Shown here: piece by piece, positions 1,482-59,400 of the stretch | Position numbering within the stretch: the first letter of the stretch is position 1 | How the letters are laid out: each line of letters begins with the position of its first letter | NCBI GenBank assembly: GCA_964016885.1 | Contig: OZ024741.1 | Coordinates: forward strand, 296,856,001 to 296,920,000 | DNA: 64,000 nt | From: Eledone cirrhosa | Taxonomy: Eukaryota | Reading direction: 5' to 3' | Translations under genes and position numbers: made by a program | Notes under the pieces: model-generated | Told to the model about the DNA's origin: nothing | Databases searched by the model: none | What the model saw: only the letters and a program-made list of their open reading frames with translations

Positions 1482-1781
1482 AATATTTATTAAAATAACA
1501 GATTAAAGTTTAAGCAAAGAATCGCTGCTTTCACCCTTAACGGGATCTTCTGAAACTAACAAAGTCAATCTGTAAACGCAGAAGTGAATATTTCAAAAAA
1601 TGTTGCGACCGGAGGAAGACAGGAAGACGATACTTTGGTTCGTGGAAACGTTCCCTGGCAAAGATCGGGAAAAAACGAATATAATACATCATTATTGCTC
1701 TACGGTTCTTATATATTAGATATATATTTATCCTTATCGAGCCCTCTTTGGATTTTAGTCTTCAAATTTATTATTATTACT
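1482..1781 (-). mobile_element. Rearranged fragment of a non-coding hammerhead-bearing (Penelope-type) repeat
   Basis: 1482-1690 matches 6763-6975; 1695-1781 is the reverse complement of 6680-6764; carries the CAGAAGA hammerhead-like motif at 1507-1557 (-). Confidence 0.6.
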
Positions 1782-1794
1782 ATATATATAAATA

Positions 1795-3598
1795 TAGAGG
1801 CCTGGAAATGTCATTATGAGAGACTGATGAATGTGGAGAACGAATGGGAGAGAGAGAAATTACCCTTAGTATATCCGACAGAGGGAGCAGCTATTGAGAT
1901 TGACGAATATAGGGTCCAAGAGGCGATTAGAGAAAGGAAAAATGGTAAGGCTGCTGGACCATCGGGAATAGTTGCTGAGATGCTGAAGGCATCATGGGAC
2001 ATAGGCAGTAAACTGGTTGCACGCATCATCAATCAGGCTATATATGGTGGTGTCATACCCAAAGACTGGTGCAGCAGTATTCTCATAAATTGCTACAAAG
2101 GTAAAGGGGATGCTCTGGAGAGGAGCAATTATAGGGGTATAAAACTGATAGATCAGGTTATGAAAGTGGCAGAAAGGATATTAGCACAACTAATTAGAGA
2201 AAGGGTCAAACTAGATGAGATGCAGTTTGGTTTTGTGCCTGGGAAGAGTACAACAGATGCCCTCTTCTTGGTGAGACAATTGCAAGAGAGGTTCTTAGAG
2301 AAAAATAAGCCACTATACTTAGCCTTTGTTGACCTAGAGAAGGCCTTTGATAGGGTCCCCCAATCTGTCATCTGGTGGTCCCTAAGGAAGCTAGGTGTTG
2401 AGGAATGGATTGTGAGGACAGTGCAAACTTTGTACAGAGGTACTCTCAGTAAAGTCAGGGTAGGAATGGAGTTTAGTGAGGAATTCCAGATACAAGTAGG
2501 AGTACATCAGGGTTCGGTCCTCAGCCCACTCTTGATTATTATAGTCCTCCAAGCCATAACAGAGGAGTTTAAGACTGGCTGTCCATGGGAACTTCACTAT
2601 GCTGACGATCTGGTTCTTATAGCAGAATCAGTAGAGGAGCTAGAGAATAAATTCTGGCTATGGAAACAGCAGTTGGAAGCAAGAGGACTGAGAGTGAACC
2701 TAGCTAAGACAAAAGTGTTGATGAGTAGAAAAGAGGACAAAACCTTGATTCCATTAGGGAAATGGCCATGTTCGATATGCAGAAAAGGAACTGGCATAAA
2801 TTCTATAAAATGCACACAATGCAGATCCTGGGTACACAAGAGATGTAGCGGGATAGCAGGAAAACTAACAGGTAGGGATAAATATGTATGCAGTAGATGT
2901 ACAGGGAAATTAGACAGTAGAAGTCGCATTGATAGACACATTTTTCAAATGCAGGAGGGCGCTATAGAAGTGGTGGATAGTTTCCGGTACCTAGGAGATC
3001 AGATTAGCATGGGAGGAGGGTGTTCCAAGGCCATAGTATCTAGAATAAGGATGGGTTGGAAGAAGTGTAGGGAGCTGCTTCCTCTGTTGACGAAGAAGGG
3101 TTTCTCCCTGCGTACGAAAGGCCAGTTGTATGATGCCTGTGTGAGGAGCGCGATGCTGCATGGTAGTGAGACATGGGCAGCAACTGCAGAGGATATGCGA
3201 CGGCTGGAGAGAAATGAGGCAAGCATGCTCCGTTGGATGTGCAGTGTAAATGTGCGTGAACGACCCAGCATAAATGTGTTGAGAGAGAAACTGTGTCTGA
3301 GAGGGATAGAATGTAGTGTACGGGAGAGGATACTGAGGTGGTATGGACATGTGATGTGCATGGAGGATGACCGATAGGTGAAGAAGTGCCAGGAAATGCC
3401 AGTTGAAGGAAGACATGGTAGAGGTAGACCACGAAAAACATGGGCAGAGATGGTGAGAACAGACCTCAGATCATTGAAGCTCACGGTGGAGATGACGAAG
3501 GACCGTGACGAGTGGAGAGATGCTGTGCTGAATAAGACCCGTCCCACCCTTGCAAGCAGGGAAAAGCGGACGTAAAATGATGATGATGATGATGATGA
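1795..3598 (+). mobile_element. RTE-clade LINE, family A, 5'-truncated (RT with PHD insert, one premature stop at 3375)
   Basis: KAAGPSGI, NYRGIKL, AFVDLEKAFDRV, GVHQGSVLSPLL, YADD, FRYLG, LHGSETW, RWYGHV, GRGRPRKTW; (GAT)n tail at 3578-3598; the first ~70 aa of ORF 1584 are read-in from unrelated DNA. Confidence 0.93.
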
Positions 3599-3614
3599 TA
3601 TATATATATATATA

Positions 3615-5755
3615 TGGAGAAAAAATTTACGAAATGGAAATGCGGGTATATAGAATTTATTAGGTAACAATTGTTTCTATAGTGTATGAGTTACCTATAC
3701 TTCGCTACTTGAATAATACACAAATATTATCAAAAACCGAAAGTACACTGTAAGCCAACACACCATGTCATCAGACCTTTGTATTAGAATGATATGAAAA
3801 TATTTTATACACTAGATAAAAGATAAAGAAGGAGGTAGGAAGAGAAGGGGAAGAGGGAAGTGAGTAAGGTGGAGGGAGTCTTAGGGTTTAAGACTGTCAG
3901 ACTAGTAGAGATTGTGAAGAGAGAATGTTTTGGCAGCAGTTAGCTTAATGAGGCGTGCTAAGGTTGGCTGGGAAGTAGATTCTTCTAGTGGTGTTGTTCG
4001 GACAAAATTTAGTTAGAGGGGTCAAAGTAGTACAGTGTCACAGACAAGTTATTAGGGCTATTATAGTAGCAGGTTATTTCTAAAGGGGTCCAGAAAAACA
4101 GTGTTTAGTACTATTATTATAGAAAGCGATATCTAGTGTATAAACATATAAGACAGAAATTTGCAAACGTTGGTGTAAAAAGGTAACATTATATGCATTT
4201 AAAAAAAGAAAAAGTCGTTTTCAAACGATGGTTACAATATAGAGAACGTTCAATTTTGCTGTTCAAAAGTTTGTTTACCGACGTTAAAATGCAGTATATC
4301 TCTAAATTGCATAACTTGCAGAATCGATGATTTTGCTGATATGCAGGCACAGCTGCAATAATTTGCCAATCAAGGGAGAACGCTTGATTGTTCCTCCGAA
4401 GCTGCCAGGCTTTATCGGCGAGGGTTGTTACGGAGCGCATTTTCTCGTGCCTGATCGAAGATCGATGTTGGTATAGGTGAGCCTTGAAAGAAGTTGCGGT
4501 ACATCCGACGTAATACCATTTGTTGGTCCCGGAATTTATTGTACACCGGTAGACAATATTGCGTGCTAGGCACTGGTTATTCAGTGGGCACGTACCTGGT
4601 TTGGTGCAGTTACAACTATCTTTATGTTTTGCAGTAGAATCCTGGATAGTTTGGTGGGGTTGTGGTTGCGTGTTAGTGCATTGTATGTTGCTATGCTGGT
4701 GCGCTGAGTCATTAGGGATGTACTTATTCAGTATTGCTGAGTTGAGTTTTCTAATTAGTTGTTCTATGTTAGGTGCAGTGGAGTATGAGAGTCTAATGGT
4801 GCGCGAGTTAAAGATTTTATAGTATTTATGTGAAGTTGTAAAGTGTTTATTGATTAGTGTATAGAATTGTGAGATAATCTTAGTGCTAATAGACGAATTG
4901 TACACGGGGTTATACCATATGTACTCTCTACGTCTGACTCTATTTGCTGGTTTGCACCTGTTAGTATGCCTATTGATGTGTGTGTGAGGTGCAATACTAG
5001 TTCGACTTAGATGTGTTTTATTCATAGTACTTATGTGGTTATCGTCTAGATATTCAATTTTCTCGCAGTAACCAGCTTTTCTAAGTGCGTCATTATAATA
5101 TTCAGCATGCTCGTTGGAGGTCTGCAAATTAGACGACAGTCGGGAGATCCTTATGGATATATTTTTAGGGATAGATTTAATAATGGAATGGGGATTGTTC
5201 GATTTTACATTAACGTACTTAAGATTTTCATTATGTTTGTGAAATGGCTCTATATTACCGTTATTAAGGTTGAAGGTGACATCCAAGAAGTTGACCACCT
5301 TAAGATTGTGTTCGAAGGTAATATTAAGCCCTAGTTCTAAGAAAAGTTTCCTAATGTTTTTACGTCGCCTTTCTAGGTTTTGTTTGTTCATATTCTTGAC
5401 TAATAGAAGTGTAACGTCGCGGTATATTCCGCCGTGGAGGTCCGTAAATTCGCTCTGGAGTCTATGGGCTATATAGATCCCAACCAAATCCGTGACCTCC
5501 GCCGAATCATTAGAACCCATCGTAATGTCGAATTCCGAGGGTCTATCCCTGCGGACCCAATAACTATTTTCAAAGTGCACTACTGTGCGTCTAGCTTCAA
5601 GTATAATATTAATTTCCTCGTTTGTGAGGTCCGAGTTAGTCTTAGCGAAAGAGAGGGCCTTATGCAGGGTTTCGGGTGAAATAGAGGAATAGTATTCATC
5701 TATATCGAATTGAATAAAAGAAGATTTGTTTTTGTCCCTAATGTTATTGAACCAT
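3615..5755 (-). mobile_element. Penelope-like element (RT + C-terminal GIY-YIG, Naiad-like motifs), 5'-truncated
   Basis: Frame extends upstream of 5580 to FIQFDIDEYYSSI; MGSNDSAEVTDLVG, IYRDV (YxDD with D>V), NFLDVTF, CNC..CPL...C, IVYRC..YYVGCT, CKLC; 3' UTR carries a hammerhead. Confidence 0.88.
3662..3778 (-). ncRNA. Type I hammerhead ribozyme with long stem II, in PLE 3' end
   Basis: Minus strand: aggt-CUGAUGA-(c atggtgtg...tacactat a)-GAAA-caattg-UU-acct, followed by aataaa; palindromic stem III. Confidence 0.65.
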
Positions 5756-5765
5756 CTATAAATAT

Positions 5766-6190: not shown

Positions 6191-6250
6191 TTCCATTTAC
6201 CAGTGGTTTCTTAAAAGCAAAAGATTTTGCTTTCAATCCTCAGAATGAAA
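6191..6250 (-). ncRNA. Type I hammerhead ribozyme, intact core, GUA site
   Basis: Minus strand: tttcatt-CUGAGGA-ttgaaagcaaaa tc ttttgcttttaa-GAAA-ccactgg-UA-aatggaa. Confidence 0.85.
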
Positions 6251-6408
6251 AAATCCTGGTCTGTTTATTGAATTTGGATTTAAAAAAACAAAAATGCATC
6301 TATATGAAAGTGAGGCTGGAGAAAGAAGGAGGAAAGGAAAAAAATAAAATAAAACCACACATGCAAACACGCACACAAACACGCACACACACACACAAAA
6401 GCATACAT

Positions 6409-6451
<43 letters not shown>

Positions 6452-6679
6452 CACTCATACATACACACACATATATACACACATATATGTGTATATAAAT
6501 ACACACATACACATACATATACACATACATACATACGCACATAAATATCAACACATCCATACATACACATACATATATACAACCACACACACATATATAC
6601 ACACATACATACATATAGAAACATAAATATATATATATATATATACATACATATATATACATATATATATATATATATA

Positions 6680-7328
6680 GTAATAATAATAAAATTGAAG
6701 ACTAAAATCCAAAGAGGGCTCGATAAGGAAAATATATATCAAATATATAAGAACCGTAGAGCAAATATTTATTAAAATAACAGATTAAAGTTTAAGCAAA
6801 GAATCGCTGCTTTCACCCTTAACGGGATCTTCTGAAACTAACAAAGTCAATCTGTAAACGCAGAACTGGATATTTCAAAAAACGTTGCAACCGGAGGAAG
6901 ACAGGAAGATGATACTTTGGTTCGTGGTAACGTTCGCTGGCAAAGAACGGGAAAAAACGAATAATACGTCATTAATAGGAGCGGTGAAAAACAATTACGC
7001 GCAAAGACAGAACCACATTTATGGTATAAAAGCGGTCGTAGACTAATTATCTCTTAGTTGGTGCATAGAGACGTTCTCTGGCAATGAACGAAAAAACGAA
7101 GATAATAAGTCAAATGTGGAGCGTGGAGAACAATAGCACGCAAAGACAAAACCACGTAAATGGTATAGCAGAAGTCGTAGACTAAAATTCTAACTAGGAG
7201 ACCAAATGAGTTTTTTGAAATATCCAGTTCTGCGTTTACAGATTGACTTTGTTAGTTTCAGAAGATCCCGTTAAGGGTGAAAGCAGCGATTCTTTGCTTA
7301 AACTTTAATCTGTTATTTTAATAAATAT
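6680..7328. mobile_element. Fold-back insert with ~120-bp inverted arms (6763-6882 / 7211-7328) and internal ~140-bp duplication
   Basis: Arms are near-perfect reverse complements; 6951-7045 resembles 7091-7185; each arm has a hammerhead-like motif. Confidence 0.8.
7254..7304 (+). ncRNA. Hammerhead-like motif with variant core CAGAAGA
   Basis: agttt-CAGAAGA-tccc gttaa gggt-GAAA-gca...tgc-UU-aaact; same motif at 6789-6839 (-) and 1507-1557 (-). Confidence 0.55.
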
Positions 7329-7687
7329 ATATATGTACATGCATACACATACACAAACATAGCCATACACAGATACATACATGCACACAATCATACATAT
7401 ATACACACGTACATACATACACACACTCTCACACATAAATATACATATACAAATACATAAACACATACATACACATACACAAATACATGCACAAACACGC
7501 ACGCACACACGTATACAATTATACACACACATATACACATACATATATACATATATATATATATAAATATAAAAATACACACACACACACATATTTATGT
7601 ATACATACACACACACATGCATACATAGCTATACAATTATACACATACAAATACGTACATATCATAAACACGCACAACCAAATACAA

Positions 7688-7764: not shown

Positions 7765-7962
7765 CATACACACATACATGTGTGTGTGTGTAAAACTCAG
7801 TCTTAGATAATTCATATGAACCTTACATATACAAATATATAGTAGTAAAGTAATAAGCAACATAAGGCAATTATTCCATTCACCAGTGGTTTCTGAGAAG
7901 CCAAAAAATTTTGCCTTCAATCCTCAGAATGAAAAAAACCTGGTCTATATACATATACATAG

Positions 7963-8041: not shown

Positions 8042-8635
8042 TACACATAAATATACATACACATACACATAGGTATGTGAAGGGCAAGGCAAAAAGAATA
8101 TATGGGGGGGGGGGGGAAGACATAGGAAAAGGTGAAATATAAGGGGAGATAAGGGAGGAAAAAATATATACAAGAGTACAGAACGTAGATTCAGCAAAAT
8201 AAAAAAAACTTCTGCTACGGTTTTTTTTATTTTGCTGAATCTACATTCTGTACTCTTGTATATATTTTTTTCTCACTTATCTCCCCTTATATTTCACCTT
8301 TTCCTATGTCTTCCCCCCCCCCCCATATATTCTTTTTGCCTTGCCCTTCACATACCTATGTGTATGTGTATGTATATTTATGTGTATATATGTATATATA
8401 TATATATATATAAATATATATGTGTGTCTATGTATATGTATATGTAGATAGACCAGGTTTTTTTCATTCTGAGGATTGAAGGCAAAATTTTTTTGCTTTT
8501 AAAAAACCACTGGTGAATGGAATAATTGCCTTATGTTGCTTATTACTTTATTACTTTACTACTATATATTTGTATATGTAAGGTTCATATGAATTATCTA
8601 AGACTGAGTTTTACACACACACACATGTATGTGTG

Positions 8636-9426: not shown

Positions 9427-9486
9427 TTTCATTCTGAGGATTGAAAGCAAAATCTTTTGCTTTTAAGAAACCACTGGTAAATGGAA
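9427..9486 (+). ncRNA. Type I hammerhead ribozyme, intact core, GUA site
   Basis: tttcatt-CUGAGGA-12-bp stem II-GAAA-ccactgg-UA-aatggaa; mutated sister copies at ~7874-7934 (-, GUG site) and ~8462-8522 (+, AAAA and GUG). Confidence 0.85.
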
Positions 9487-9714: not shown

Positions 9715-9756
9715 GTGCCCTTGAGAAGCCCAACTGGGTGAAACATACGTAGGTGC
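9715..9756 (+). ncRNA. Hammerhead-like motif with U3-A8 core variant
   Basis: gtgccc-UUGAGAA-gccc aact gggt-GAAA-catacg-UA-ggtgc, followed by aataaacatgttttaat; stem I imperfect. Confidence 0.5.
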
Positions 9757-10794: not shown

Positions 10795-13501
10795 TATTTC
10801 GTTTCTGAATTTGTTTAGCAAGATTCTTTATCTGAAATCGTGTGTTGAAACCGATATTGTTATACTTTGGGAGGGTCATGTTGCCAATAAGAAACACACG
10901 CACCAGTTGCTTTCACTTCAATTTATTATATATTTATAAATTTACAAATCTACAAACTTATAAATTTCTGGTTGGTTGGTTGGTTCCACAACCAGATAGT
11001 TGTTTATATATAGTCATAGTCCTTTCGTCACACACTCTGTGACCTCTTCAGTGACTGGGGATTCCTTTCTTTGTTTCTGTGCCTTTCCTTTCTTCTATCC
11101 TACGCCATTTTGTTTCTGTGTGTGTGTTGTGTGCTCAGTTTGCGCATGCGCCACATCCGGGTGTCTGTGTGTGTTTGTGTTCATTTATATATTTGTTTAT
11201 TTATTTATTTATTTATTGTTGGTTGGTTGTTTGTTCTATGTGTGTGTGTGTTTTCATTTTGTCCTGTGTGTGTTTTCATTTTGTCCTTAATTGTAAGTTG
11301 TTTGTTCTATGTGTGTGTGTGTTTTCATTTTGTCCTGTGTGTGTTTTCATTTTGTCCTTAATTGTAAGTTGTGATGTTGCTGTTCCACTCATATTTTCTA
11401 TTTAATTTTGGTTTTAATTCTTTTATGCTTACTGCCTCTGTAATTTGCCTAAACATTGCGTCTTTTCTGTGTGTGGATTCTATTTTTATTTCTATGCTCT
11501 CTAATCTACCCCTGTGTTCTATCTTAGCATGTTGGTAGAGCACAGATGATTCTTTATTATCTTGGAGGTCTCGCCAGTGTTCATTTATTCGTTCCCCTAT
11601 ACTACGAGCTGTCTCACCTATGTACACTATATTTTTGTTTCTACATTGTCCTTCAGTACATCTTATGCTATACACTACATTTCTAGTTTTACAGTTAATA
11701 TGGGGGCTTATTTTACAGGTTATACATTTCTTATCTATACATCAGGGTCTTTGGAACGGGTATGTCTTGCTAATAAGTGTTTTTACGGAGGTACCTGGTC
11801 TTTCTACTATCTTAATATTGAGATTATGTTTATTTAGGGCCCTTCTAAATTTGTAGGCTAGTTCGCCTCTAGGGGTTGTATTGATGAACATTACACTCTG
11901 GTATTTATTGCTATCATACCACGAGTTTATTCTATTGGCCTTGTTCCTAGTTCTTTCTATTCTATTCCAAAATTTGCTCCTATACAAGGGGCAGGTCCCA
12001 TTTATGTCATTATTTACCATTTTTTCCTATTTGGTTCTGGCTCCTCTATATACTCTGATTTTATCTCTCTGATTGTAACCAGAGAACTGCATACGGTGGA
12101 TGAAGTGTTGTATGTGTCTCTCTAGTTCTTCGGGGTTGCACATGCGGGACACATTTCTCATCACCCGTACCAAATCCGCAATCAGTATGTTGATTTTGGT
12201 ATGGTCCGAAATGGCCGAGTTTCGGTGGATCAGATGTTTGGAAGTCATGGGTTTGGCATAATGGGAATGGAGGATTTGTTTTTGGTTGTTAATGGTATCT
12301 AACCAGAGCTCTGTGTCTAGTACAGGTAATCGATGGTTGGGGTGTCTACTTGGGTAGTCTATAGTAACTCTAATGCTCTGGTGGATGGAGTTTGCTATTT
12401 GCTGGATGCTTTCCATTGTGTTTTTCTCTAGTTCCTGACTGTTCTTTAGTGGGGGTGTCTTAACTACGATGTTTATATCATCTACGTAGCGGGAGTACAT
12501 TATCAGGGTTAAGCTGTCTTCTAATAGTTCATTAAGTTTTTGTTTAAGTCTACTGTCCCACCATACCATGAATAAGTTAGCTATGTCGCCTGCAATGCTA
12601 ACACCAATGGCTGCTCCTTCCTCTTGGGCATATGTTTTACCATTAAATTTGAACATATGTTCCTTAAGGGTTAATTTTATGCTGGCCCCTACCGCATGTG
12701 CAATCATTTTCTTCAGTTCATCGTGGTTTTCGGGTGTCCGTATGGCTCTGGTCCACCCGTTCCATCTATCTGTGTGGGTTTTCTTGGCCATTGAGGTAAT
12801 GGTAGGTGGTCTGCCTCTTGCTGGTCTTGTAGGGCACAGGTTGCTAAGGTCATAAGTGTCTAGGTAACTATTACTATGGGTAAGCTTAAGTAGAAGTCCC
12901 AGCTCACTGGTATCAATCCCACGGAACTCAACTTTGCTCTCGCTGATCATTTCTACGCATTTCTCCACAGCAAAATCCACGTCAATAGATGGATACAGGG
13001 ACACAACATCCATACTGCCTATTATGCAGTTTGTTAGGTCCCCAGATCGGTTACCCGCGTCGATTCTGCTGAGGAGGTCCTCCGTGGTGTCACACACATC
13101 TGGGGACATCTCAATGATGGGGCGTATGATCAGGGAGAGGAAGTAGGACAGTATGTAGTTACTAGCAATGTTAGCCTCACAGACTGGCCGTGTTGGTGGT
13201 CCCGCGACAGGGTCCCAGCCCGTTTTATGGTCTTTTCGGAGCCCATACAACGCCGGCACGTCATTGTTCCAGGCCTGGAAGTTGTTGGCAGTCCTTTTGT
13301 TGGGCTGCATTATATTCGTCCACATCACCATATGGGCATTGAGGGCTTTTTCTCTATCCTCATGCTCCTGTGGTGTTACCTCTCTTGTGTTAGTGATGTG
13401 GGGTTGCATTGCCTGGATGTAGTTTGGCAGGCTGTCAACCGACATTCTGCCAGACTTGTCTGTTGGAAAACATGCATGTTTTCCAACAGACAAGTCTGGC
13501 A
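10795..13501 (-). mobile_element. Penelope-like element, second family (RT + GIY-YIG), two premature stops, 5' snap-back
   Basis: PTDKSG, SMDVVSLYPSI, EGAAIG, YSRYVDD, LPVLD, VVYSIRC..VYIGETARS; stops at 12027 and 11742 are W and S in the copy at 50932-52140. Confidence 0.92.
11012..11056 (-). ncRNA. Minimal type I hammerhead ribozyme in PLE 3' end
   Basis: Minus strand: agtca-CUGAAGA-g-gtcaca gagtg tgtgac-GAAA-ggac-UA-tgact. Confidence 0.8.
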
Positions 13502-13534: not shown

Positions 13535-14050
13535 ATAGCTTTCACCGTATTTTTGACTACAGGAATTTTAGCCTGATAATGGGGTTTAGAACCCTCAGAT
13601 AAATGGAAAAAGATGAGTAGTGACGTACATGGGACTCGAACCCACATCTTTGGTTATCGCGACCACTGTGCTACCATTACACCAACACATCACCCATCTC
13701 TTTCCATTCAAATTAGAAGCTACATTCTTAGCGAGTTTAAATGGCAAGTAAGTATGTTTTGAAACAGTGAGCGAGTTTGTTTCAAAACATACTTACTTGC
13801 CATTTAAACTCGCCAAGAATGTAGTTTCTAATTTGAATGGAAAGAGATGGGTGATGTGTTGGTGTAATGGTAGCACAGTGGTCGCGATAACCAAAGATGT
13901 GGGTTCAAGTCCCATGTATGTCAATACTCATCTTTTTCCATTTATCTGAGGGTTCTAAAGCCCATTATCAGGCTAAAATTCCTTTAGTCAAAAATACGGT
14001 GAAAGCTATTCTATTTTCAAACCTGCTCACTGTTTCAAAACATACTTACT
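13535..14050. repeat. Palindrome (~230-bp arms, 11-nt loop) carrying a tRNA-like cloverleaf in each arm
   Basis: 13535-13766 mirrors 13778-14009; A box tggtgtaatgg and B box ggttcragtcc at ~13853-13923; 14024-14050 repeats the unit start. Confidence 0.85.
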
Positions 14051-16091: not shown

Positions 16092-16507
16092 TATAAACGT
16101 TTGGAGTTAGAAGGCCAAAACAATGCAGGTATGGATATAGAATATAAATACAAATGCAAAAGATATTGCTGACAATTAGTCTTTTACCTTAAATTTATTT
16201 GAATATTCTTAATTTTCGAGATAATATCTCTTCTTCAGAGGGCAGTAAATGGGTTAATCCAGTGTTCTAATTAGCTTGCCAAGTCATGCTGACAGACTAT
16301 TTACTGTCAGCATGACTTGGCAAGCTAATTAGAATACTGGATTAACCCCTTTACTTCCCTCCAAAGAAGAGATATTATCTCGAAAATTAAGAATATTCAA
16401 ATAAATTTAAGGTAAAAGACTAATTGCCAGCAATATCTTTTGCATTTGTATTTATATTCTATATCCATACCTGCATTGTTTTGGCCTTATAACTCCAAAC
16501 GTTTATA
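16092..16507. repeat. Near-perfect palindrome (~204-bp arms, 8-nt loop) with hammerhead core
   Basis: Centre gctgacag-actattta-ctgtcagc; left arm read on minus gives CUGAAGA-a-gagata t tatctc-GAAA (16213-16238). Confidence 0.9.
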
Positions 16508-18003: not shown

Positions 18004-18114
18004 AAATTTCCACACGCAAGAAATGCCAGTTTGTAGATGATGACCATTGCACATTCCAGTATAAATATTGGTATGAAGGTACCGAGGTGTTCATTGAAGC
18101 GAAGGAGGAGAAAT
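18004..18114 (+). CDS. Integrin beta subunit exon (beta-tail domain: ISTRKKCQFVDDDHCTFQYKYWYEGTEVFIEAKEEK)
   Basis: tttttccag acceptor, gtaata donor; C-x-F-x-D-D-D-x-C-x-F-x-Y pattern; phase 1 joins the next exon in frame. Confidence 0.8.
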
Positions 18115-18589
18115 GTAATATAAATTTTTGATTTGTATTCATGTTATTTTTATTATTATTTTATTTACTTGTTAAAAAATATCTCCCATGCTGATAAGGC
18201 TGGAGTTTATCCCCATTTCTTTGGTGTTAGGTAACTGAAAGTACAAGAGTTCTCCTGGACATGACGCCTGTCCTTTGAAATGTAAACTCCCAGCTGAGTT
18301 GATTGGAGCAATGCAAAATGAAATGTTTTATTCAAGAACATAGATATAGATATCAAATACATAGATACAGATATCAAATAGTTAAAAGAGAAGCTAGATG
18401 ACAGGTTTACATAGTATGTTAAGATGTTGAAAACAAGAAGTTTGCCTATGTTATACAATGTGAGGACCAGTGGCATGGAATGATCTGCATAGCAAAGCTG
18501 AGTGCTTGTGTGGACCAGGATGTTGTTGGGGAAAAGCTTTTGGAATGACTCGTTTTTCTTAGCCTCACAAACGCTATAATAAGAAAGGA

Positions 18590-19176: not shown

Positions 19177-19337
19177 CCTGTCCCATTCCTGATTATGTTG
19201 TGCCAGTGGCTGTAGTAGGCGGAATAATTATCCTGGGTATCATTGCTATTTTGATCTACAAATGTGTTACAACAATCTATGACAGACGTGAATATGCAAA
19301 TTTTTTGCTATGTAATGAACATGCTAAGTGGAGCCCT
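19177..19337 (+). CDS. Integrin beta subunit exon (transmembrane helix + proximal cytoplasmic tail)
   Basis: CPIPDYVVPVAVVGGIIILGIIAILIYKCVTTIYDRREYANF..AKWSP; HDRRE-like motif; tttgccag acceptor, gtaagt donor. Confidence 0.92.
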
Positions 19338-20420: not shown

Positions 20421-20501
20421 CGAGAAAATCCAATTTACAAAGTTCCAAAGTCAACATACATGAATCCATTATACGGAGGCAAAAAATGCAACACAGAATA
20501 G
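20421..20501 (+). CDS. Integrin beta subunit last coding exon (RENPIYKVPKSTYMNPLYGGKKCNTE*)
   Basis: ttttttctgttacag acceptor, phase 0; two NPxY motifs; TAG at 20499-20501; this frame is not in the ORF track. Confidence 0.92.
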   Translation, partial: RENPIYKVPKSTYMNPLYGGKKCNTE

Positions 20502-20755: not shown

Positions 20756-21764
20756 TCTATATACTACTAAAACTCTGATCTTGATTGTTTGCTTGCTTGC
20801 TTGCTTGCACACACTTTCTCTCTATATATATGTTCATATTTGTGTATATACAGGATGTCACCCCAAAAATGTATACCCACTTTGATTGCCTATACATGCA
20901 TTATTTGTTAGGATGGTGTATACAATTTTAGGGACCCCGGTATATATATATATGGTGTCCCCGAAAAATGTATACACACTTTGATTACCTGTACAGGCAA
21001 TATATATATTAGAATGGTGTATACATTTTTAGGGACCCTGGTATATATATATATATGGTGTACCCGAAAAATGTATACACACTTTGATTATCTGTACAGG
21101 CAATATATATATATTAGAATGGTGTATACATTTTTAGGGACCCCGGTATATATATATATATATGGTGTCCCCGAAAAATGTATACACACTTTGATTACCT
21201 GTACAGGCAATATATATATATTAGAATGGTGTATACATTTTTAGGGACCCCGGTATATATATATATATATATATGGTGTCCCCGAAAAATGTATACACAC
21301 TTTGATTACCTGTACAGGCAATATATATATTAGAATGGTGTTGGTGTATACATTTTTAGGGACACCGGTATATATATATATGGTGTCCCCGAAAAATGTA
21401 TACACACTTTGATTACCTGTACCGGCAGTATATATATTAGAATGGTGTATACATTTTTAGGGACACCGGTATATATATATGGTGTCCCGGAAAAATATAT
21501 ACACACTTTGATTACCTGTACAGGCAATATATATATTAGAATGATGTATACATTTTTAGAGACCCCGGTATATATATATGGTGTCCCCGAAAAATGTATA
21601 CACAGTTTGATTACATGTTCTGGCAATATATATATTAGAATGGTGTATATATTTTTAGGGACACCGGTATATATATGTATGGTGTCCCCGAAAAATGTAT
21701 ACACACTGATTACCTGTACAGGCAATATATATATTAGAATGATGTATACATTTTTAGGGACCCC

Positions 21765-21809
<45 letters not shown>

Positions 21810-22099
21810 TGTCCCCGAAAAATGTATACACAGTTTGATTACCTGTACAGGCAATATATATATTAGAATGGTGTATACATTTTTAGGGACACCGGTATAT
21901 ATATATATATGGTGTCCCGGAAAAATGTATACACACTTTGATTACCTGTACAGGCAATATATATATTAGAATGGTGTATACATTTTTAGGGACACCGGTA
22001 TATATATATATATCGTGTCCCGCAAAAATGTATACACACTTTGATTACCTGTACAGGCAATATATATATTAGAATGGTGTATACATTTTTAGGGACCCC

Positions 22100-22132
<33 letters not shown>

Positions 22133-22209
22133 TGTCCCCGAAAAATGTATACACACTTTGATTACCTGTACTAGACTACTCGTGACCCAACGGGTCACGA
22201 GTAGTCTTG
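20756..22209 (+). mobile_element. Helitron-like non-autonomous element containing a satellite array
   Basis: Starts TCTATATACTACTAAAA..(gctt)n; ends in a 16-bp hairpin agactactcgtgaccc-aac-gggtcacgagtagtct with CTTG (degenerate CTAG); same 5' leader at 25137. Confidence 0.55.
20849..22170. repeat. Satellite array 1: ~88-bp palindromic unit + variable (TA)n, ~13 copies
   Basis: ggtgtccccgaaaaatgtatacac...gtgtatacatttttagggacacc/ccc gg(ta)n. Confidence 0.95.
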
Positions 22210-22831
22210 TATAAAATAAAAGTTAAATAGTATACCCCACATATATAGATTTTTAATAGAAATTTTTAATTTTGACATAGATAGACTATTTTTATTTTTT
22301 TATTTTATTTTATTTAATAAAAATCTATTTTATACTTATTTTAATTTTATTTTATTTTATTTTATTTTACTAATACATTTTTACACTTCTTAATCGAATT
22401 TTTAGTATTTAAACCCAATATAAAATAATATACCCAGTTTCTATATTTTAGACCTCTAATATTTGAATACCATCTATAATTGTTTCTACGTTTTGGCACA
22501 AGGCCAGCAATTACACCAGTACATTACTGGTACTTTATTTTATCGCACATAGAACTCATCAATTTACTTTTTAACCGTTATTTACAGCTTGTTTCATTTT
22601 GACAGTGTTCCTGATCAAAAGTCTCTCTCTCTCTATCTACCTATCTATCTCTTTCTCTCTCTTCCTTCTTTCTTTTTTCCTTTTTTTTTCCTCTCTTCAC
22701 TTTCTTTTTCCTTTTTCTACTTCTTCTTTCCTTTTCTTCTATTTTCCTATCTTTTTCTTACTCTTATATTTCTGTCATATGTAGACTTTGCACTTTCCTG
22801 CTGACAAGTGCTTTTAGGCCTCATGTTACCT

Positions 22832-22901
22832 TATTTTATCTGATGAGAACACAATTTTTGTCCCAGGATGATGTTGTTTTCGAAATGTGCATAATAAAAT
22901 A
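22832..22901 (+). ncRNA. Type I hammerhead ribozyme, intact core, AUA site
   Basis: tattttat-CUGAUGA-gaacac...gttgttttc-GAAA-tgtgca-UA-ataaaata (8-bp stem I). Confidence 0.8.
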
Positions 22902-23960
22902 TATGGAACTTTTTTAACCATCTTTTAATTTCTTCTTCTTATATATATATATATATATGTGTGTGGTGTGTGTATAATTTCGAGCTTAATGAGTTTATGT
23001 CATTTGAAATGACAGAAAGTCATTAATATAATGGTACATCTTTTTCTTATTTCTAGGGTTGCTGAATCTAGAGCAATGTGATAATCATATATAGTGATAT
23101 CCAGAATTTGATAATATTTTGTTAACCTCTCTATCCCCCCTCCCTCCCCTTAAATTAGACATAACAGAGACGTTACCATATATACTCAAATATCAACTGA
23201 TCTAAATATAATCTAAACTCCTATTTTATGCCTGAGAAATGGGAAATATCGAAAACCCGTTTATAAGCTGAGGTAGCTAATCAACACATTATGTTTAGAT
23301 GGTGTGGTTTTGAAATACTCATGAGTATTAAATATATTTATGAAGTTTTAATATTTTGATGTTTAAAATGTTTTAATTGTCGTTTAAAATATATTTTTTG
23401 TTCACAACTCCATTATGTAATGCATTTTTACCATTTCATTCGTTTTATAGTTTCAACAAGTTTCTCAAACTTTTATTTACTTCTGGCCACTCACATACTG
23501 GGAGTAGTTGAAAGTAAACAATCGAATAAGAGAACCTTGTATAGGAATTCATTGAGTAGAAGTGGGAGAGAGAGACAGCAAGTAAGAGAGAGAGGAGAGA
23601 TAGAGCAAGAAAAAGAGAGGGAGAGAGAGCAATAAAATCAAATCAGATTTCTAACTTACGTTTTTAAGCATTATAGGGGTGCAGATGAAAACATGTTTAT
23701 TTTAGTAGACTTGCTATCAAAGAAAATTATTTTTTCGTAACAAAGCAATTTATTTGTCTCTATTTTCCTCTAATAATATATAACAGAGTTGCCAGTCCAC
23801 TCAAGGATGCCAGACAGTGTTGTTTCAAGATGTGTTAATCTTTCATCAGTGACACACATTCAATCTATACTGGCATGGAAATAGACTAAAGTCTATATAA
23901 AATGTTGCAGGTTGTTGTTTTAAATATCCACTTTCCCTGCTAGCAAGAGTTGGACGTATA

Positions 23961-25136: not shown

Positions 25137-25217
25137 TATACTACTAAAACTCTGATCTTGATTGCGTGCTTGCTTGCACACACTTTCTCTATATATATAT
25201 GTTCATATTTGTGTATA

Positions 25218-37655: not shown

Positions 37656-38051
37656 TAGCGAGAAGGTTAAGGTTTAAATAAGATAACCGTATTTGGGGCA
37701 TAATTTAACAAGCATAAAAAATACAAGATTTGTTTTGAAAAATACGCTAGAATTATCGAATAGAAAAGCAAAGATTGGATTCTGGGAGAAATGTTACAGA
37801 TTGATGAATGGACTAGGGAATTAAAATGGTGAGAAGAGTGAAAAAATATTTGTAGCGAGAAGGTTAAGGTTTAAATAAGATAACCGTATTTGGGGCATAA
37901 TTTAACAAGCATAAAAAATACAAGATTTGTTTTGAAAAATACGCTAGAATTATCGAATAGAAAAGCAAAGATTGGATTCTGGGAGAAATGTTACAGATTG
38001 ATGAATGGACTAGGGAATTAAAATGGTGAGAAGAGTGAAAAAATATTTGTG
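37656..38051. repeat. Tandem duplication, ~197-bp unit x2
   Basis: tagcgagaaggttaagg...aaaatatttgt at ~37656 and ~37853. Confidence 0.9.
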
Positions 38052-38316: not shown

Positions 38317-38927
38317 AAAACAAATAACGAAACGAAATTAAATTTTGTTTCGTTTGTAACTCACTTTTGTATGACTGACGCTTAAACAATTAAGTTCAAA
38401 ATGTACATCCACATATGTATACTGAAATACTAGTATGCATATGAATACACACACGTGTACATATGTAGATGTACCGAGTTTTTCACTGGAGTGAGTTACA
38501 AACGAAACAAAATTTAATTTCGTTTCGTTATTTGTTTTTATCGTCTCCGCTGAACCGGTACGTACTCACGCTCTATGCAAATTAGTCTGCCCACTACTAA
38601 TTTTCATAGAAAAAGCATATAACGATATGTGCTTTTACGATTCTCTAGAAAGGCCGGAAGATAGGTGAATATTGCTGATGAGATGTAACAACATCTAAAC
38701 TAGTCCAATATTCCTTGTCTGGCTTTCTGGAGAATAGAGGAAAGGTGTTTCCTCGAAAACCAGTATGACTCTAAAAACCGGTTTGTCTGTGTGTTTACAT
38801 ACAGAATAGCTGGACACTCACAGTAAAGTGTCCAGTGAAAAACTCGGTACATCTACATATGTACACGTGTGTGTATTCATATGCATACTAGTATTTCAGT
38901 ATACATATGTGGATGTACATTTTGAAC

Positions 38928-39659: not shown

Positions 39660-39744
39660 AAAGTTATATTTAAAATTGTTGGGTTACAACTAGTAAATAT
39701 TTATAACTGATATAAAAGCACTCGACAAATATTTGGAGTATATT

Positions 39745-40119
39745 TACAATATTAAGTAAATGGAAACTATATTTATAAAACCATATTTATTTCATTATAT
39801 ATATTTCGGGGATATCATATTAACAATATGCTATGCCCTCCTCAGACAAAATACAATATAAACAGTTTTATAGATAAATAGATTCGACATACCGTTATAA
39901 CACCGACTTCCATTTGAAGAGGTTTAAGCTGGCAGCTTAAACCTCTTCAAATGGAAGTCGGTGTTATAACGGTATGTCGAATCTATTTATCTATAAAACT
40001 GTTTATATTGTATTTTGTCTGAGGAGGGCATAGCATATTGTTAATATGATATCCCCGAAATATATATAATGAAATAAATATGGTTTTATAAATATAGTTT
40101 CCATTTACTTAATATTGTA
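39745..40119. repeat. Perfect palindrome (186-bp arms, 3-nt loop) with a hammerhead in each arm
   Basis: Centre ttaagct-ggc-agcttaa. Confidence 0.95.
40011..40076 (+). ncRNA. Type I hammerhead ribozyme, intact core, AUA site (mirror copy 39788-39853 -)
   Basis: tattttgt-CUGAGGA-ggg..catatt gtt aatatg..cccc-GAAA-tatata-UA-atgaaata. Confidence 0.8.
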
Positions 40120-40393
40120 TATATATATATATATATATGAATTTAATAATAATAATATGGATTTAAATAAATATGATATTTATTTTAAAACTTTTCTTTA
40201 ACAACCTATAAAGAAACATTATCATATGTACAGCTTATGCACTTCTATGGACAATTTATCATTTTACCAACAAGTCAATCATGTAAGCCACGCCCCTGAT
40301 GAGATGGCCAATTCACTGCAAGTAGTTTTCTCAACAGTCTGGAATTAGCTGTCAGTGTGTGTATGTATGTATACACACACATATATATATATA

Positions 40394-48869: not shown

Positions 48870-48934
48870 TATTTTATCTGATGAAAGCGCACCATAATTT
48901 GCTTTGGTGTCCTTGAAATATGTATAATGAAATA
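48870..48934 (+). ncRNA. Type I hammerhead ribozyme, intact core, AUA site
   Basis: tattttat-CUGAUGA-aagcgcacca..tggtgtcctt-GAAA-tatgta-UA-atgaaata; downstream 40 nt shared with 40069-40119. Confidence 0.8.
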
Positions 48935-49542: not shown

Positions 49543-50284
49543 TATGAAAAAGTGAGTCCTCATCAGTGACCCTCCAACCGTCCTCGGCATTTCATCGCTT
49601 TAAGGGCCATATGCCTCAGGTTGGTGCGAACAACGGCTAAAAAAAGTCGTTGGGACACGTAAATAAAGGGGGACATTAGAGTAACAACAAAAGGGTTATA
49701 GCAACGGAAAGTGAGTAGAAATAGACAAGTCCCAGATCTCTATGAATATAAACTCTGTGAAATCGTGAACAAGAGACGAAAGACCATCGAACCTGGTAGA
49801 AATGTGAGCAAGGAAAGAATTTCGCCCAAGTTCGACAGGGGGGAAAAAGGAGAGAGAGAGAGAGAACGAAAACTGGTCTACGAATTCGGTAAACGCAAGT
49901 TTTGTGAAGTCGCAGACGAAAGAGAGAGAGAAAAAAAATTATTACCAGCTCGGTCAAGACTGCGCGAGAAAAGAATTACACACAGGTCAAACTTGAAGGA
50001 GGAGGAGGAAAGAGGAGGAGGAGAGGTAGTGACAGAGAATGAGTGAGTGAAAGTTGAGGAGAGGGTAACAGAGAGAGAGAGACTGCTAAAAGTGGTAGAG
50101 ATACAAGGAACGAAACAGACAGGCAGCATGGAAAGTATATGTGTAAATATGGTGATAATGGAGCTGTGGCGTTGCAAATGGGATACATATGAAAAAGTGA
50201 GTCCACATCAGTGACCCTCCAACCGTCCTCGGCATTTCATCGCTTTAAGGGCCATATGCCTCAGGTTGGTGCGAACAACGGCTA
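49543..50284. mobile_element. Non-coding element bounded by ~95-bp direct repeats
   Basis: 49543-49639 ~ 50188-50284; purine-rich interior; embedded in (TA)n. Confidence 0.7.
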
Positions 50285-50335
50285 TATACATATATATATA
50301 TGTATATGTGTATATATATATATATACATACATAT

Positions 50336-50549: not shown

Positions 50550-52140
50550 ATACTTTGGGAGGGTCATGTTGCCAATAAGAAACACACGGACCAGTTGCTT
50601 TCACTTCAATTTATTATAATAAATTTATAAATTTATAAATTTCTGGTTGGTTGGTTGGTTCCACAACCAGATAGTTGTTTATATATTGTCATAGTTCTTT
50701 CGTCACACACTCTGTGACCTCTTCAGTGACTGGGGATTCCTTTCTTTGTTTTTGTGTCTCTCCTTTGTTCTGTCCTACGCCATTTTGTTTCTGTGTGTGT
50801 GTTGTGTGCTCAGTCTGCGCATGCGCCACATCCGGGTGTCTGTGTGTGTTTATGTTCATTTATTTATTTGTTTATTTACATGTTACTGGTTGGTTGTTTG
50901 TTCTATGTGTGTGTGTGTTTTCATTTTGTCCTTAATTGTAAGTTGTGATGTTGCTGTTCCACTCATATTTTCTATTTAATTTTGGTTGTAATTCTTTTAT
51001 GTTTATTGCCTCTGTGATTTGTCTAAACATTGCGTCTTTTCTGTGTGTAGATTCTATTTTTATTTCTATGTTCTCTAATTTACCCTTGTGTTCTATTTTA
51101 GCATGTTGGTAGAGTACAGATGATTCTTTACTATCTTGAAGGTCTCGCCAGTGTTCACTTATCCGTTCCCCTACACTACGAGCTGTCTCACCTATGTACA
51201 CTATATTTTTGTCTCTACATTGTCCTTCAGTACATCTTATGCTATACACTACATTTCTAGTTTTATAGTTAATATGGGGGCTTATTTTACAGGTTATACA
51301 TTTCTTATCTATACATGAGGGTCTTTGAAAAAGGTATGTCTTGCTAATAAGTGTTTTTACGGAGGTACCTGGTCTTTCTACTATCTTAATATTGAGTTTA
51401 TGTTTATCTAGGGCCCTTCTAAATTTGTAAGCTAATTCACCTCTAGGGGTTGTATCGATGAACATTACACTCTGGTATTTATTGCTATCATACCATGAGT
51501 TTATTCTATTAGCCTTGTTCCTAGTTCTTTCTATTCTATTCCAAAATTTGCTCCTATACAAGGGGCAGGTCCCATTTATGTCATTATTTACCATTTTTTC
51601 CCATTTGGTTCTGGCTCCTCTATACACTCTGATTTTATCTCTCTGATTGTAGCCAGAGAACTGCATACGGTGGATGAAGTGTTGTATGTGTCTCTCTAGT
51701 TCTTCGGGGTTGCACATGCAGGACACGTTTCTCATCACCCGTACCAAATCCGCAATCAGTATGTTGATTTTGGTATGGTCCGAAACGACCGAGTTTCGGT
51801 GGATCAGATGTTTGGAAGTCATGGGTTTGGCATAATGGGAATGGAGGATTTGTTTTTTGTTATTAATGGTATCTAACCAGAGCTCTGTGTCTAGAACAGG
51901 TAATCTATGGTTGGGGTGTTTACTTGGGTAGTCTATAGTAACTCTAATGCTCTGGTGGATGGAGTTAGCTATTTGCTGGATGCTTTCCATTGAGTTTTTC
52001 TCTAGTTCCTGACTGTTCTCTAGTGGGGGTGTCTTAACTACGATGTTTATATCATCAACGTAGCGGGAGTACATTATCAGGGTTAAGGGGTCTTCTAATT
52101 GTTCTTTAAGTTTAAGTTTAAGTCTACTGTCCCACCAGAG
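50543..52140 (-). mobile_element. Penelope-like element, second family, 5'-truncated, open RT C-terminus + GIY-YIG
   Basis: ORF 50932-52140 (YSRYVDD, VVYSIRC, YIGETARS); UTR homologous to 10855-11357. Confidence 0.92.
50688..50730 (-). ncRNA. Minimal type I hammerhead in PLE 3' end
   Basis: Minus strand: gtca-CUGAAGA-g-gtcaca gagtg tgtgac-GAAA-gaac-UA-tgac. Confidence 0.8.
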
Positions 52141-52662: not shown

Positions 52663-52932
52663 ATTGGTATTCACCTATCTAAGATTATATATCAATTATG
52701 TACGACCTGTTATACACGTTTCGCAGAGGTTCAGCTATAGGTCCCCCATAGAAGTTATGGACCCGACTCCATTATCAATCTGCTCTTCAGACTGATGATT
52801 TACCAAAAGATGCAGTGTTTGTGGAATCACCATATATATATATTTATGTGTGTATGTATATATAATGTGCAATAATCATATACTCATATAAGGGTTTACA
52901 AAGCATTTAATTGAACTCACACACACAAACAC

Positions 52933-55782: not shown

Positions 55783-56109
55783 TATATATATATACCATGT
55801 ACATATAATCATCATAATTGTTTATGTATAAGTAATAAATTTAAATACATCTATGTATACATGAATGCCCTTATATTTTTATATGTATATCTAAATATTA
55901 AACAACTCTTAAATAATAATAATGTACTTGTTTTCTTCTCTCTTTTTTTCATCAGATTTTATATTTAAAACAAAAAACAAAAGATATACCAACTCAACAG
56001 ATATCTGTAATAAATATGTAACAGACTTTTTTTGCTTTGTTTTATGTTCTTATTCAAAAACATGAGATTGTTTAATTTAACTTTGTTGGAAATTGTTTGT
56101 AGAAACATT

Positions 56110-56460
56110 ATCATCACCATTTAAAGTCCATTTTCATTGTTAACATGGGTTAGACAAGCTGTCCTGTTGTGAGATAAGCCATGTCAGATGACCGGGTCTT
56201 GCTCATACAGAACTGATTTTGGCTTGGTTTCTACAGCTGGATGCCCTTCCTAACGCCAACAACATGTACAGCGAGTATTAGGTGCCTTTTGTCGTGACAC
56301 CTACATGACCACTTTACAGTGTGGACTGGGCGCTTTTTGGCATGACATCTACATGAACACTTTGCAGTGTAGACTGGGCACTTTTTGCCATGACAACTAC
56401 ATGACCACTTTACAGTGTAGACTGGGCACTTTTTGCCATGACAACTACATGACCAACACA
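56110..56460 (-). mobile_element. Old RTE-tail/SINE relative with ~50-bp x3 minisatellite
   Basis: ctacagctggatgcccttcctaac; ctacatgaccactttacagtgt repeats at 56301-56455; similar remnant at 57310-57530. Confidence 0.6.
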
Positions 56461-59400
56461 AGAGCTAGAATGACGGGGTCATCCTACTGACATGGCATAA
56501 AAATGAGGCTTGTTTGCATAATTGCAAACAAATCAAATGTTATTATTAATATTCGAAATATATATATATATATTAATATATAACTCTACAAAGTAAACTG
56601 TCTCTAATTCAGTTTATCTCAAATACATAGATACATACAGACTGCTACACATATACACATAAATACACATACACACACACATATATATATATACTTAATT
56701 TACAACCTTCTAAAGTAATTGTCTCTAATATGTAGACATCCCAATGAAAGGCTAAGATATATCAATAAATTGACAAACCAATAATCCACTCAGAGAAGTA
56801 TAAAAAATATCAAATTTAATTCTAACTTGCATTTTGGGGTGGAATACAAGTCAAATTGGCTAAACGAAGCCAATTCTAACCTATATAATCTCCCAACCAT
56901 GGTTTCAAAAACTCAAAGAATCAGCATCTAGAGTTTCAAGACATTAGAATAACTAATGCTGAGAGAACTGAATATATATATATATCCGCCACTGGATAGA
57001 ACTGGTCATTTTGTATTGTTAACCATGATGTAATATTAGGAAAAGCACTCAACATTATGCAACTCATCCATCTTTGATATTGAATTTTGTTGATGGTGCG
57101 AGTCAAAACATTTTTTTTCTCTGCTTTCTCTCCTTATAGCCTCTTGGATTGTGTTTACTGTTATTCCTTTATTATATAACTATTATGTAATATACACTTG
57201 ATGATGTCACCAGGATCTTACGTAACCTGGCCACTGAAATGTACATTTGCTGAAATAAATCTTTGAAGGAATTTCACCAGTCTGGCCTCCTGTCATTTTA
57301 CTCAATATATCATCATCATCACTGTTTTATGTCCATTCTTCCATGCTAGCATGGGTTAGACGGGTTGTCCTGTTGTGGGCAATGCAAGTCAAGTGACCAT
57401 GTTTTGCTCATACAGAACTGATTTTGGCTTGATTTCTACAGCTGGATGCCCTTCCTAACATCAACCTCATTTACAGTGAGTACTGGGTGATTTTTTACCA
57501 TGGCGCCTACACAACCACTTTACAGTGGAACGTGGGTAGGGGCATACTGTCTATATGCTTCAGCTTCGGCTTGTACCCGTGGGAAGTCGAGTCTTTGGGC
57601 AAGGTCAGTTTATATATATATATATAGTATCAGCAGAGGTGTAATTGGACATGGTCAGCTTTTATATAGTATCAGCAGAAAATGCTCTGTTACATCAGTT
57701 GAACAGAGAGCTGCAAATTTACATACATCTCGTATATAATATATAGTATAGCTAGTATCATCATCATCCTCATCATCATTTAACGTCTACTTTCCCTGCT
57801 AGTAAGTCAGAACGGTAGACAAAGGTCTAGGAGGGCAGTTATTTCTAAATAAAATATAACAGTACAGGGCAGATATGGGCTCCATGTTCTCCCAGACAGG
57901 TTGAGGAGTTTGCATCCTGCTTACATACTGCCATACATTCTAAAAAGTGTAGAGGAGAAGTTATGTCTTTTGACACAAACTAAAAAGTCCTCCCACCCCC
58001 CTGTTTGGCAAGCTTTCTATGGCTGAATGACCTTCCTAACACCAACAACATTACAGTATGTACTGAGTGGTTTTATTGTGTAGATCACCAGCACAGTATG
58101 TATTTATATATATCTATATCTATATCTATCTATGCATATATGTTTATGTGTGTGTGTATAGATATATGAAATAAAATATAGGTATCTGCTTTTTGTAGGC
58201 AACTCCAGGCTTTGATTCAGAGTGACTGCTCACCTAGTCAGGTTGTCTTCAGTACAGCTTATATAGCCCATGTCTGCCTTGTACAGTTTTATTTTATTTA
58301 CCCTCCTAGACTCACATCTTCACTAGGGAGTCATTAGCTGCCACTAATGCATCTTAAGGTTCCCTCATTGGCTCTTCTCAGCATAGCTACAGCCCACACA
58401 GTGCTGAATTGACATTTGTCATATTAAGGAGTTACATAGGAAAACTGTCATACCGGAATGTTGTGATGATGGACCAGAAGATGGTGGTAAGGGGGAGGGA
58501 GGGTTTTATGTGATGTCTCTCAGGCAGGTCACCAAGACAAGAAAAAAAAATAAAGAAAATTGTTTAAAATATTACTTATGGGCAATAACAATAAAAACTG
58601 ACTGAGAAAATAAGACACTAAGAAGAAATAATGCTTAGCTTGAGATTTGTTTCATGAGCATTTTATTGTGACTTACATACAAAACAGCCTGATTAAATTT
58701 AAGAAATGGGATAGAATTTGTTTGGAAGATGAAGTGTATGTTGATAGAGGGAATGAGGGAAAGATAGTGATTCTGAGAGAGAGAGAGAGAGACAGAGAGA
58801 CAGAGAGAGAGAGAGAGTGTGTGTGGGGGAGCCATGCAAAAGCTGACTGAGAAAATAAAATGAGATGGTGTAGGAGAGACACAAAATAACAACAAAAGTA
58901 GTCACTGAGGTCACAGAATGTGTGCCAAAAAGTTTTGACAATCAACAATTAAACAACCATCCAGTTATTAAACTAACTGATTGGGAGTTTATAATAAATT
59001 GAAGTGAAATCTAATGGTGAGTGTGTTTTTTATTGGCAGCATGACCCCACCCAAAGTATAACATGCTACCATGGAAAATGGACGTTAAATGATGATGATG
59101 ATGATATATATTATACATATATCTTCTGCTTCTTCTTCACCAAGTTATTTCTGAGAGGGTCATTGAGGCAGTCTTCAGACATACCTTCCAATGGATCCTA
59201 GCAGAAGCAACCATCTCCAAATGATCCAGATGGACCTCCAAGTAGATCCACACATGCACACATAAGTATATTTATATATTTATGCTATCATTTCATCTTG
59301 GTTGTCTTTATACATATTCTAGTGTCTGTAAGTTTCCTAAGCTGAAGGCAGTGTTGATACTGAGAGACAGTAGGATTTAAAAAAACAACAAAGCCAAAAT

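Follow-up and report, generated by a model that had tools for sequence, protein, structure and literature searches.

Hammerhead ribozyme motifs of several families populate a 64,000-nt stretch of the genome of the octopod Eledone cirrhosa (GCA_964016885.1, contig OZ024741.1, positions 296,856,001 to 296,920,000 of the forward strand), referred to here as the window, which also contains three open reading frames (ORFs) of Penelope-like elements (PLEs). An earlier note on the same DNA had proposed that minimal type I hammerheads of this kind mark PLE termini, and this proposal was supported: on the sense strand, three motifs lie just 3' of a PLE ORF, and Hydra-type relatives in other organisms show the same arrangement. 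All positions are given relative to the window, which has a G+C content of 36.7% by base counts and is rich in (TA)n tracts and RTE-like LINEs (long interspersed nuclear elements), as well as other repeats.

Penelope-like ORFs and the hammerheads behind them

The first ORF (4189–5757, minus strand) starts at a (TA)n tract, is truncated at its 5' end, and encodes a reverse transcriptase (RT) with the CxCX5C linker and the CxxC and CxH motifs. It has no Pfam match, and 123 relatives were found. RWK and DKT belong to the 5' part that is missing in the window, and the consensus of the relatives shows both. By its motifs, the ORF can be assigned to the Hydra clade. The second ORF (11358–13500, minus strand), broken into two frames, combines RT and GIY-YIG (E 4e-5) with the linker CIDKKCITC of the CX4CxxC type, by which it appears Neptune-like, Nematis having the same linker type. 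The proteins closest to it are from Octopus vulgaris (73–78% identical); one Penelope-like ORF matched Octopus vulgaris proteins with 73% identity over 99% of the query, the next-ranked matches reaching about 53%. The third ORF is a 5'-truncated second copy of the Neptune-like one (50932–52140, minus strand).

A family D hammerhead (3662–3778, minus strand) with an intact core, the helix III sequence CAATTG, and a predicted cut after 3666 is located 415 nt downstream of the Hydra-type ORF. Its stem II is a 90-nt hairpin, nearly continuous (z-score −2.4), with a C.A mismatch at the base. The two Neptune-like ORFs are followed, at 307 and 206 nt, by minimal family C hammerheads at 11012–11056 and 50688–50730 (both minus strand), the former with a bulged G after A9, a G10.1-C11.1 pair, and a helix III of 4 nt.

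Specificity of the motif search

Our strict type I descriptor required perfect CUGANGA, GAAA, and UH segments with at least four of five pairs in both stem I and stem II, and permitted an optional bulge after A9 and a stem II of up to 95 nt. A first, plainer descriptor had detected seven motifs; the bulge, one stem mismatch, and the 95-nt stem II were admitted after inspection of the sequence, and the controls were run with the widened version. It accepted 10 of the 43 CTGANGA heptamers in the window, with C3 at 3774(−), 6243(−), 9434(+), 11051(−), 22840(+), 23849(−), 39845(−), 40019(+), 48878(+), and 50726(−), all of which present the CUGANGA/GAAA/UH core in type I order. Dinucleotide shuffles gave on average 0.03 matches when shuffled globally, 0.08 within 1-kb blocks, and 0.12 within 200-nt blocks (120 shuffles each), with a maximum of two in any of the 360. 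The reversed window gave none, and 60 decoy cores scanned on the real window averaged 0.05 matches. The strict motifs are about a hundredfold above chance (10 versus about 0.1), which confirms the abundance described in the earlier note. They are not independent: they belong to five families, and 39845 and 40019 form one palindrome. Looser tiers of the descriptor matched 3.4–3.9 times in shuffled sequence.

The Rfam models (Hammerhead_1, clan CL00010) detected no hammerhead at the gathering score in the window and none at E ≤ 10 in 22760–23950; among the matches listed, the E-values for the whole window were dominated by (TA)n matches to miRNA models. Because these models likewise fail on 26 of 26 sense-strand motifs from 20 related PLE loci, their silence is uninformative, and Rfam overlooks PLE hammerheads of this kind. 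A scan for a U3-A8 core gave no match in the window. The only match of a type II/III scan, inside a LINE ORF, was rejected, as were core-like matches at 2524(−) and 46499(+), which are antisense to the RT motif GSVLSP and hence by-products of coding sequence.

All nine motifs previously called intact were recovered, and 23849(−), which had been missed, was added. Among 11 motifs previously listed as variant or damaged, the seven at 1507, 6789, 7254, 7874, 8462, 30783, and 38667 gained support, either by homology to intact copies or by having a single core change with good stems. The other four are inseparable from chance: 9715 has two core changes and falls in a tier with 3.4 shuffle matches, 16213 has no stem I, and 52713 and 57198 appeared in no scan. 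The resulting 17 credible motifs in 64 kb match the stated density of one per 3–4 kb and trace, by our own reading, to about a dozen insertions.

Families, inverted copies, and decayed motifs

We defined families by comparison of the flanks. Family A has two intact members, at 6191–6250 (minus strand; C3 at 6243; 11-bp stem II, helix III CCACTGG) and, as its mirror, at 9427–9486 (plus strand; 9434). Two further copies carry G17: one at 7874–7934 (minus strand; 7927), cut off about 20 nt upstream of the core, and its mirror at 8462–8522 (plus strand; 8469), which also has G12A. The family A copies sit in a large palindrome centred near 8215. Family B consists of two subgroups joined only by alignment, one with the intact motif at 22832–22901 (plus strand; 22840; helix III TGTGCA) and the U16.1A copy at 30783–30853 (plus strand; 30791), the other with the left and right arms of a palindrome at 39739–40125, namely 39788–39853 (minus strand; 39845) and 40011–40076 (plus strand; 40019), and the intact motif at 48870–48934 (plus strand; 48878). 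Besides its members at 11051 and 50726, family C includes a decayed copy at 58872–58942 (plus strand) with most of the core deleted. Singletons are D (3774), E at 23807–23855 (minus strand; 23849), with an intact core and a GUC cleavage triplet, and the motif at 38667–38713 (plus strand; 38675), with G12U, an 8-bp stem I, and the helix III sequence CTAG. Family F is described below.

Stem sequences differ while pairing is kept, as had been noted: in family B, the stem II base is exchanged (GAA/TTC, GGG/CCC, AAG/CTT) around a fixed core. The description of helix III as tiny and palindromic or nearly so applies to A, B, D, and 38675, in which antiparallel self-pairing is possible at all but at most one position, and is weaker for C and E. 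Both the bulge after A9 and G10.1-C11.1 are present in family C; 22840 and 39845/40019 have the pair without the bulge, and A, D, E, F, and 48878 have neither.

Paired copies are arranged head to head on opposite strands, and therefore no dimer is possible within one transcript. The only same-strand neighbours of one family, the A copies 965 nt apart, are different variants that were separately truncated rather than tandem units; 8469 and 9434 were accordingly rejected as a tandem retrozyme unit, and no other tandem unit of the retrozyme type was seen in the window. (TA)4 or longer occurs within 130 nt past the cut site in 13 of the 18 motifs examined, compared with about 30% of random positions, the copies not being independent. 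Every insert keeps 25–150 nt beyond the predicted cut site.

Of the weak candidates, 9715–9756 (plus strand) is a possible decayed hammerhead not above chance, and 16111–16507 is an ambiguous remnant, a palindrome built head to head in which 16238(−) has a CTGAAGA core together with stem II. Two more possible decayed hammerheads lie at 52705–52796 (minus strand), with a perfect core and a long stem II insert, and at 57190–57255 (plus strand), with C3U and poor stems, the latter read by eye. A 100-nt element occurs twice, at 49543–49640 and 50190–50290; on the minus strand, one copy ends in a hammerhead half core and the start of stem II, at 49566(−). This half core, cut off by (TA)n and without a GAAA partner, was rejected as a hammerhead.

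A tRNA-like element between (TA)n tracts forms a further head-to-head palindrome, 97% perfect, at 13535–14009, with Rfam tRNA matches at 13621–13691 and 13853–13923. It abuts the truncated 5' end of a PLE in the layout of the hammerhead palindromes, and was possibly mobilised in the same way.

Motifs behind related Hydra-type ORFs

Aligning the ORF at 4189–5757 and 29 of its top relatives led to 389 confirmed stretches, the best of which supplied 77 metagenome loci. A strict sense-strand motif was found 99–525 nt downstream in 24 of the 58 loci whose 3' flank was 150 nt or longer; the remaining 34 had no strict match and a few near misses. Six loci carry a motif at both ends, as in a pseudo-long terminal repeat (pseudo-LTR). 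Shuffles of the related loci gave 0.7 matches over both strands. The core was exact in 41 of 43 distinct motifs in a tally that allowed up to one mismatch, 20 of the 43 have U.U at 10.1/11.1, and the helix III regions do not exceed 8 nt and are about 90% self-complementary. The stem II region of family D, at 90 nt, contrasts with at most 29 nt in the sense-strand 3' motifs of these loci.

In one locus (L025), two canonical hammerheads at 2636–2682 and 2917–2963 (minus strand) lie head to tail, 281 nt apart, antisense behind a Hydra-type PLE. They are the only Rfam matches in 20 related loci and likely represent a retrozyme dimer.

Family F carries U4A in its core

Family F has three copies in the window, with C3 at 1552, 6834, and 7259. 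The first (1498–1573, minus strand; predicted cut after 1512) is a 5' piece, in inverted orientation, of an element that has its 100-nt tail at 1695–1796 (plus strand). The second (6780–6855, minus strand) is the main copy of an insertion at 6680–7330, followed by a 100-nt tail and (TA)n, and the third (7238–7313, plus strand), short and inverted, lies at the opposite end of that insertion. All three have the identical core CAGAAGA, with A at position 4 (U4A). They had previously been regarded as damaged, but the alteration is a fixed feature of the family. The fold comprises a stem I of 5 bp with an internal loop and a distal stem of 7 bp, a stem II of U.U plus three C-G pairs, and a helix III of 4 bp with a 7-nt loop, longer than any in the Hydra-type relatives. 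A U is unpaired at 1.7 and an A closes loop II, which corresponds to the minimal tertiary contact that reportedly stabilises active hammerheads (PMC11875169). Neither a CAGANGA-core hammerhead nor DNA similarity to the F motif was found in any related locus, and none of the 43 distinct motifs there has A at position 4.

We aligned four public DNA data sets to 1470–1790. Matches to F comprised 18,873 contigs in run X1 and 15,637 of 12.5 million reads in run X22. For 1,839 million letters, a depth of about 7,660 would correspond to about four copies per Mb if sampling were even, the restriction-site-associated DNA (RAD) data being uneven; with a genome size of a few Gb, the number of copies might be of the order of ten thousand, an estimate only. 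Three copies in 64 kb against about four per Mb make the window a likely hotspot.

The best 40 of 64 variant rows, from all four runs, include no variant in 1488–1559 or 1565–1573, two in the internal loop, and 29 varying positions in 1574–1694. None affects position 4, and any U4 form of F would be below a share of about 10%, as these rows extend down to about 10%; where subfamilies are pooled at the terminus, variants can be diluted. Compared with all the rest of the stretch, the invariance is significant (0 of 67 versus 38 of 241 sites vary, p 8e-5). Contigs labelled as two other species match F exactly over 1504–1555 and 1483–1559. The invariance suggests constraint, without being proof of catalysis. 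About 30 nt past the cut site, the reads of F terminate in (TA)n.

A low-depth contig in run X6 joins the F tail, with a loose end behind 1783, to a hammerhead that resembles family A and is cut short at stem I. It suggests that A fragments insert at F tails, as near 6250–6680 in the window.

Other features of the window

With hand-set bounds, hammerhead-bearing elements account for 16.7% of the window if the three ORF bodies are included and for 6.6% (4,233 nt) if they are not. Therefore, the expectation that much of the unannotated DNA derives from PLE termini was too high, the share being about 7–17%. The remainder consists of LINE coding sequence (24.1%), simple repeats (17.9%), arrays resembling miniature inverted-repeat transposable elements (MITEs; 9.5%), other repeats (15.1%), and unassigned sequence (16.7%).

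The last three exons of an integrin beta gene, for the tail, transmembrane, and cytoplasmic parts, are at 18006–18115, 19177–19337, and 20421–20501 (plus strand), the cytoplasmic part having NPIY and NPLY and the Pfam domain Integrin_b_cyt. If the upstream exons lie to the left of the window, the hammerheads at 1–18 kb would be intronic, and those on the plus strand would be part of the pre-mRNA. Tandem arrays of a unit of about 101 bp with terminal inverted repeats, separated by (TA)n, occupy 20845–22150 and 25214–30011; we take them to resemble a Tc1/mariner-type MITE. A perfect hairpin beside CTAG (22151–22205) interrupts the array and resembles a Helitron 3' end on the minus strand. A repeated block of about 540 bp (1–1480, read by eye) and a 197-bp tandem duplication of similar AT-rich wording (37656–38050) contain no strict hammerhead.

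Discussion

We consider the motifs to be real type I hammerhead folds of several families, three of them directly downstream of PLE ORFs and the rest probably the 3' termini, truncated or inverted, of further PLE families inserted at (TA)n tracts of an octopod genome; we assign this reading a probability of about 0.85. For families A, B, E, and F, a PLE origin is likely by analogy, given their (TA)n tails and inverted copies. According to the available text of PMC8557442, inverted 5'-truncated copies, a tail of 30–40 bp, and (TA)n targeting are described PLE traits, and the Hydra-clade PLEs treated there share with the window the linker, CxxC, and CxH motifs of the ORF at 4189–5757, the (TA)n site, the 3' hammerhead, and the inverted truncated copies with such a tail.

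Several observations weigh against this reading. A PLE ORF adjoins only three of the 10 strict motifs, from families C and D, and no adjacent ORF was found in the window for A, B, E, and F. G10.1-C11.1 is missing in several motifs, replaced by U-A in A and C.A in D and varying in B, and in the intact motifs the hammerhead fold is 0.2–4 kcal/mol less stable than the best fold. The folding stability of F is ordinary (z-score −0.95), its invariant block shows no covariation, and its difference from its own 3' tail, where 5 of 94 sites vary, is not significant (p 0.08). Published minimal PLE hammerheads, as far as the accessible text of PMC4209133 goes, cut poorly in vitro even as dimers.

The cleavage steps are proposed from the sequence. 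A master element would carry the hammerhead in a pseudo-LTR, so that a tandem or read-through transcript contains two copies; pairing between their self-complementary helices III would let the RNA be cut into unit lengths, which might then circularise. In line with the published model, tandem transcripts would be processed by such helix III dimers in most families. Nicks in (TA)n would come from the GIY-YIG endonuclease, and reverse transcription, begun in the short tail behind the ribozyme, would often stop early or fold back, leaving solitary 3' ends and head-to-head pairs, most of which are probably inert relics. As the inserts keep 25–150 nt past the predicted cut, the copied template must, in our view, span an intact cut site, being uncut or circular, and this would favour slow or conditional cleavage. 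Family F may attain slow cleavage by its weakened core with U4A and not by requiring a partner.

Could AT-rich, hairpin-rich DNA produce such motifs by chance? The descriptor was tuned on the data, its looser tiers match three to four times in shuffles, and Rfam sees none of the motifs, yet the reversed window and the decoy cores, in which every hairpin and repeat is retained, give 0 and 0.05 matches, and related ORFs in other organisms are followed by the same motif. Chance, which we regard as extremely improbable as a general explanation, fits only the four weak candidates and is refuted for the 10 strict motifs. That the families without ORFs are non-LTR retrozymes, tandem units giving rise to small circular RNAs, is improbable to a lesser degree. 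Molluscs have such elements (about 5,000 copies in mussel; PMC7229834, in its accessible part), a preprint (10.64898/2026.07.22.740005), as far as it could be accessed, derives them from PLE pseudo-LTRs, and motif E looks canonical. Nevertheless, the paired copies are inverted rather than head to tail, the same-strand A copies are separately truncated variants, and strict motifs are absent from the tandem repeats found by TRF and from the repeated block at 1–1480.

A more serious rival holds that the motifs are PLE-derived and retained as sequence or structure signals for the RT or endonuclease instead of for cleavage, F being a dead relic that spreads regardless. F did reach a very high copy number with a changed core base, its tail varies little as well, and Naiad PLEs proliferate without canonical hammerheads, which may merely parasitise PLEs (PMC8557442, accessible part). 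F nevertheless keeps every other core base, all helices, and the contact pair of U 1.7 and the loop II A. A viroid variant with U4C retains function in vivo and, among mismatches, U10.1.U11.1 is tolerated best, according to the available text of PMC3088659, and the motifs of the Hydra-type relatives mostly have the exact core. We regard this explanation as conceivable and not probable.

On our reading of truncated PLE 3' ends, the phenomenon itself, many families per genome with opposite-strand pairs, is known, and the octopod case extends it. In the accessible part of PMC4209133, minimal PLE hammerheads share with the window the type I topology, the tiny or palindromic helix III, the many families per genome, the mostly solitary copies with opposite-strand pairs 100–700 bp apart, the long helix II, and the bulge after A9 seen in family C; no octopod example appears among them. 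Families A, D, F, and, variably, B depart from that consensus in lacking the "highly conserved" G10.1-C11.1 and mostly also the bulge, as do D in its 90-nt stem II and F in U4A and a helix III region of 15 nt. Type I hammerheads in animal repeats and a PLE link are common ground with non-LTR retrozymes as portrayed in the same parts of PMC7229834 and the preprint, from which the window differs by having no head-to-tail hammerhead units. For octopus or cephalopod hammerheads, only Craig 2021 (PMC8557442) and a squid genome paper surfaced in a limited literature search.

U.U at 10.1/11.1 and a position-4 change (the viroid U4C) are known and tolerated natural core variants; U4A is not named in the available text of PMC3088659, and no description of such a core was found in open-access titles, abstracts, or text, figures not being visible. 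The known variants are rare single cases, whereas that of F is fixed in a very high-copy family. Family F might be a natural active hammerhead with U4A, present in about ten thousand copies of an octopod PLE and common to related species, which would fold as a monomer with a proper helix III and use the weak core, in place of dimer dependence, as a brake permitting reverse transcription of uncut RNA. We put this forward tentatively, as an idea with the odds against it. If it is true, octopod genomes would rank among the most hammerhead-laden known, and standard descriptors would overlook a large part of that load. Family F provides a clean test of whether cutting is required of PLE hammerheads at all. 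Cleavage by F would widen the hammerhead consensus at a position hitherto taken as invariant and would mean that counts based on descriptors are too low; a lack of cleavage would mean that a PLE family of great success keeps the fold without catalysis, which would point to a role in recognition.

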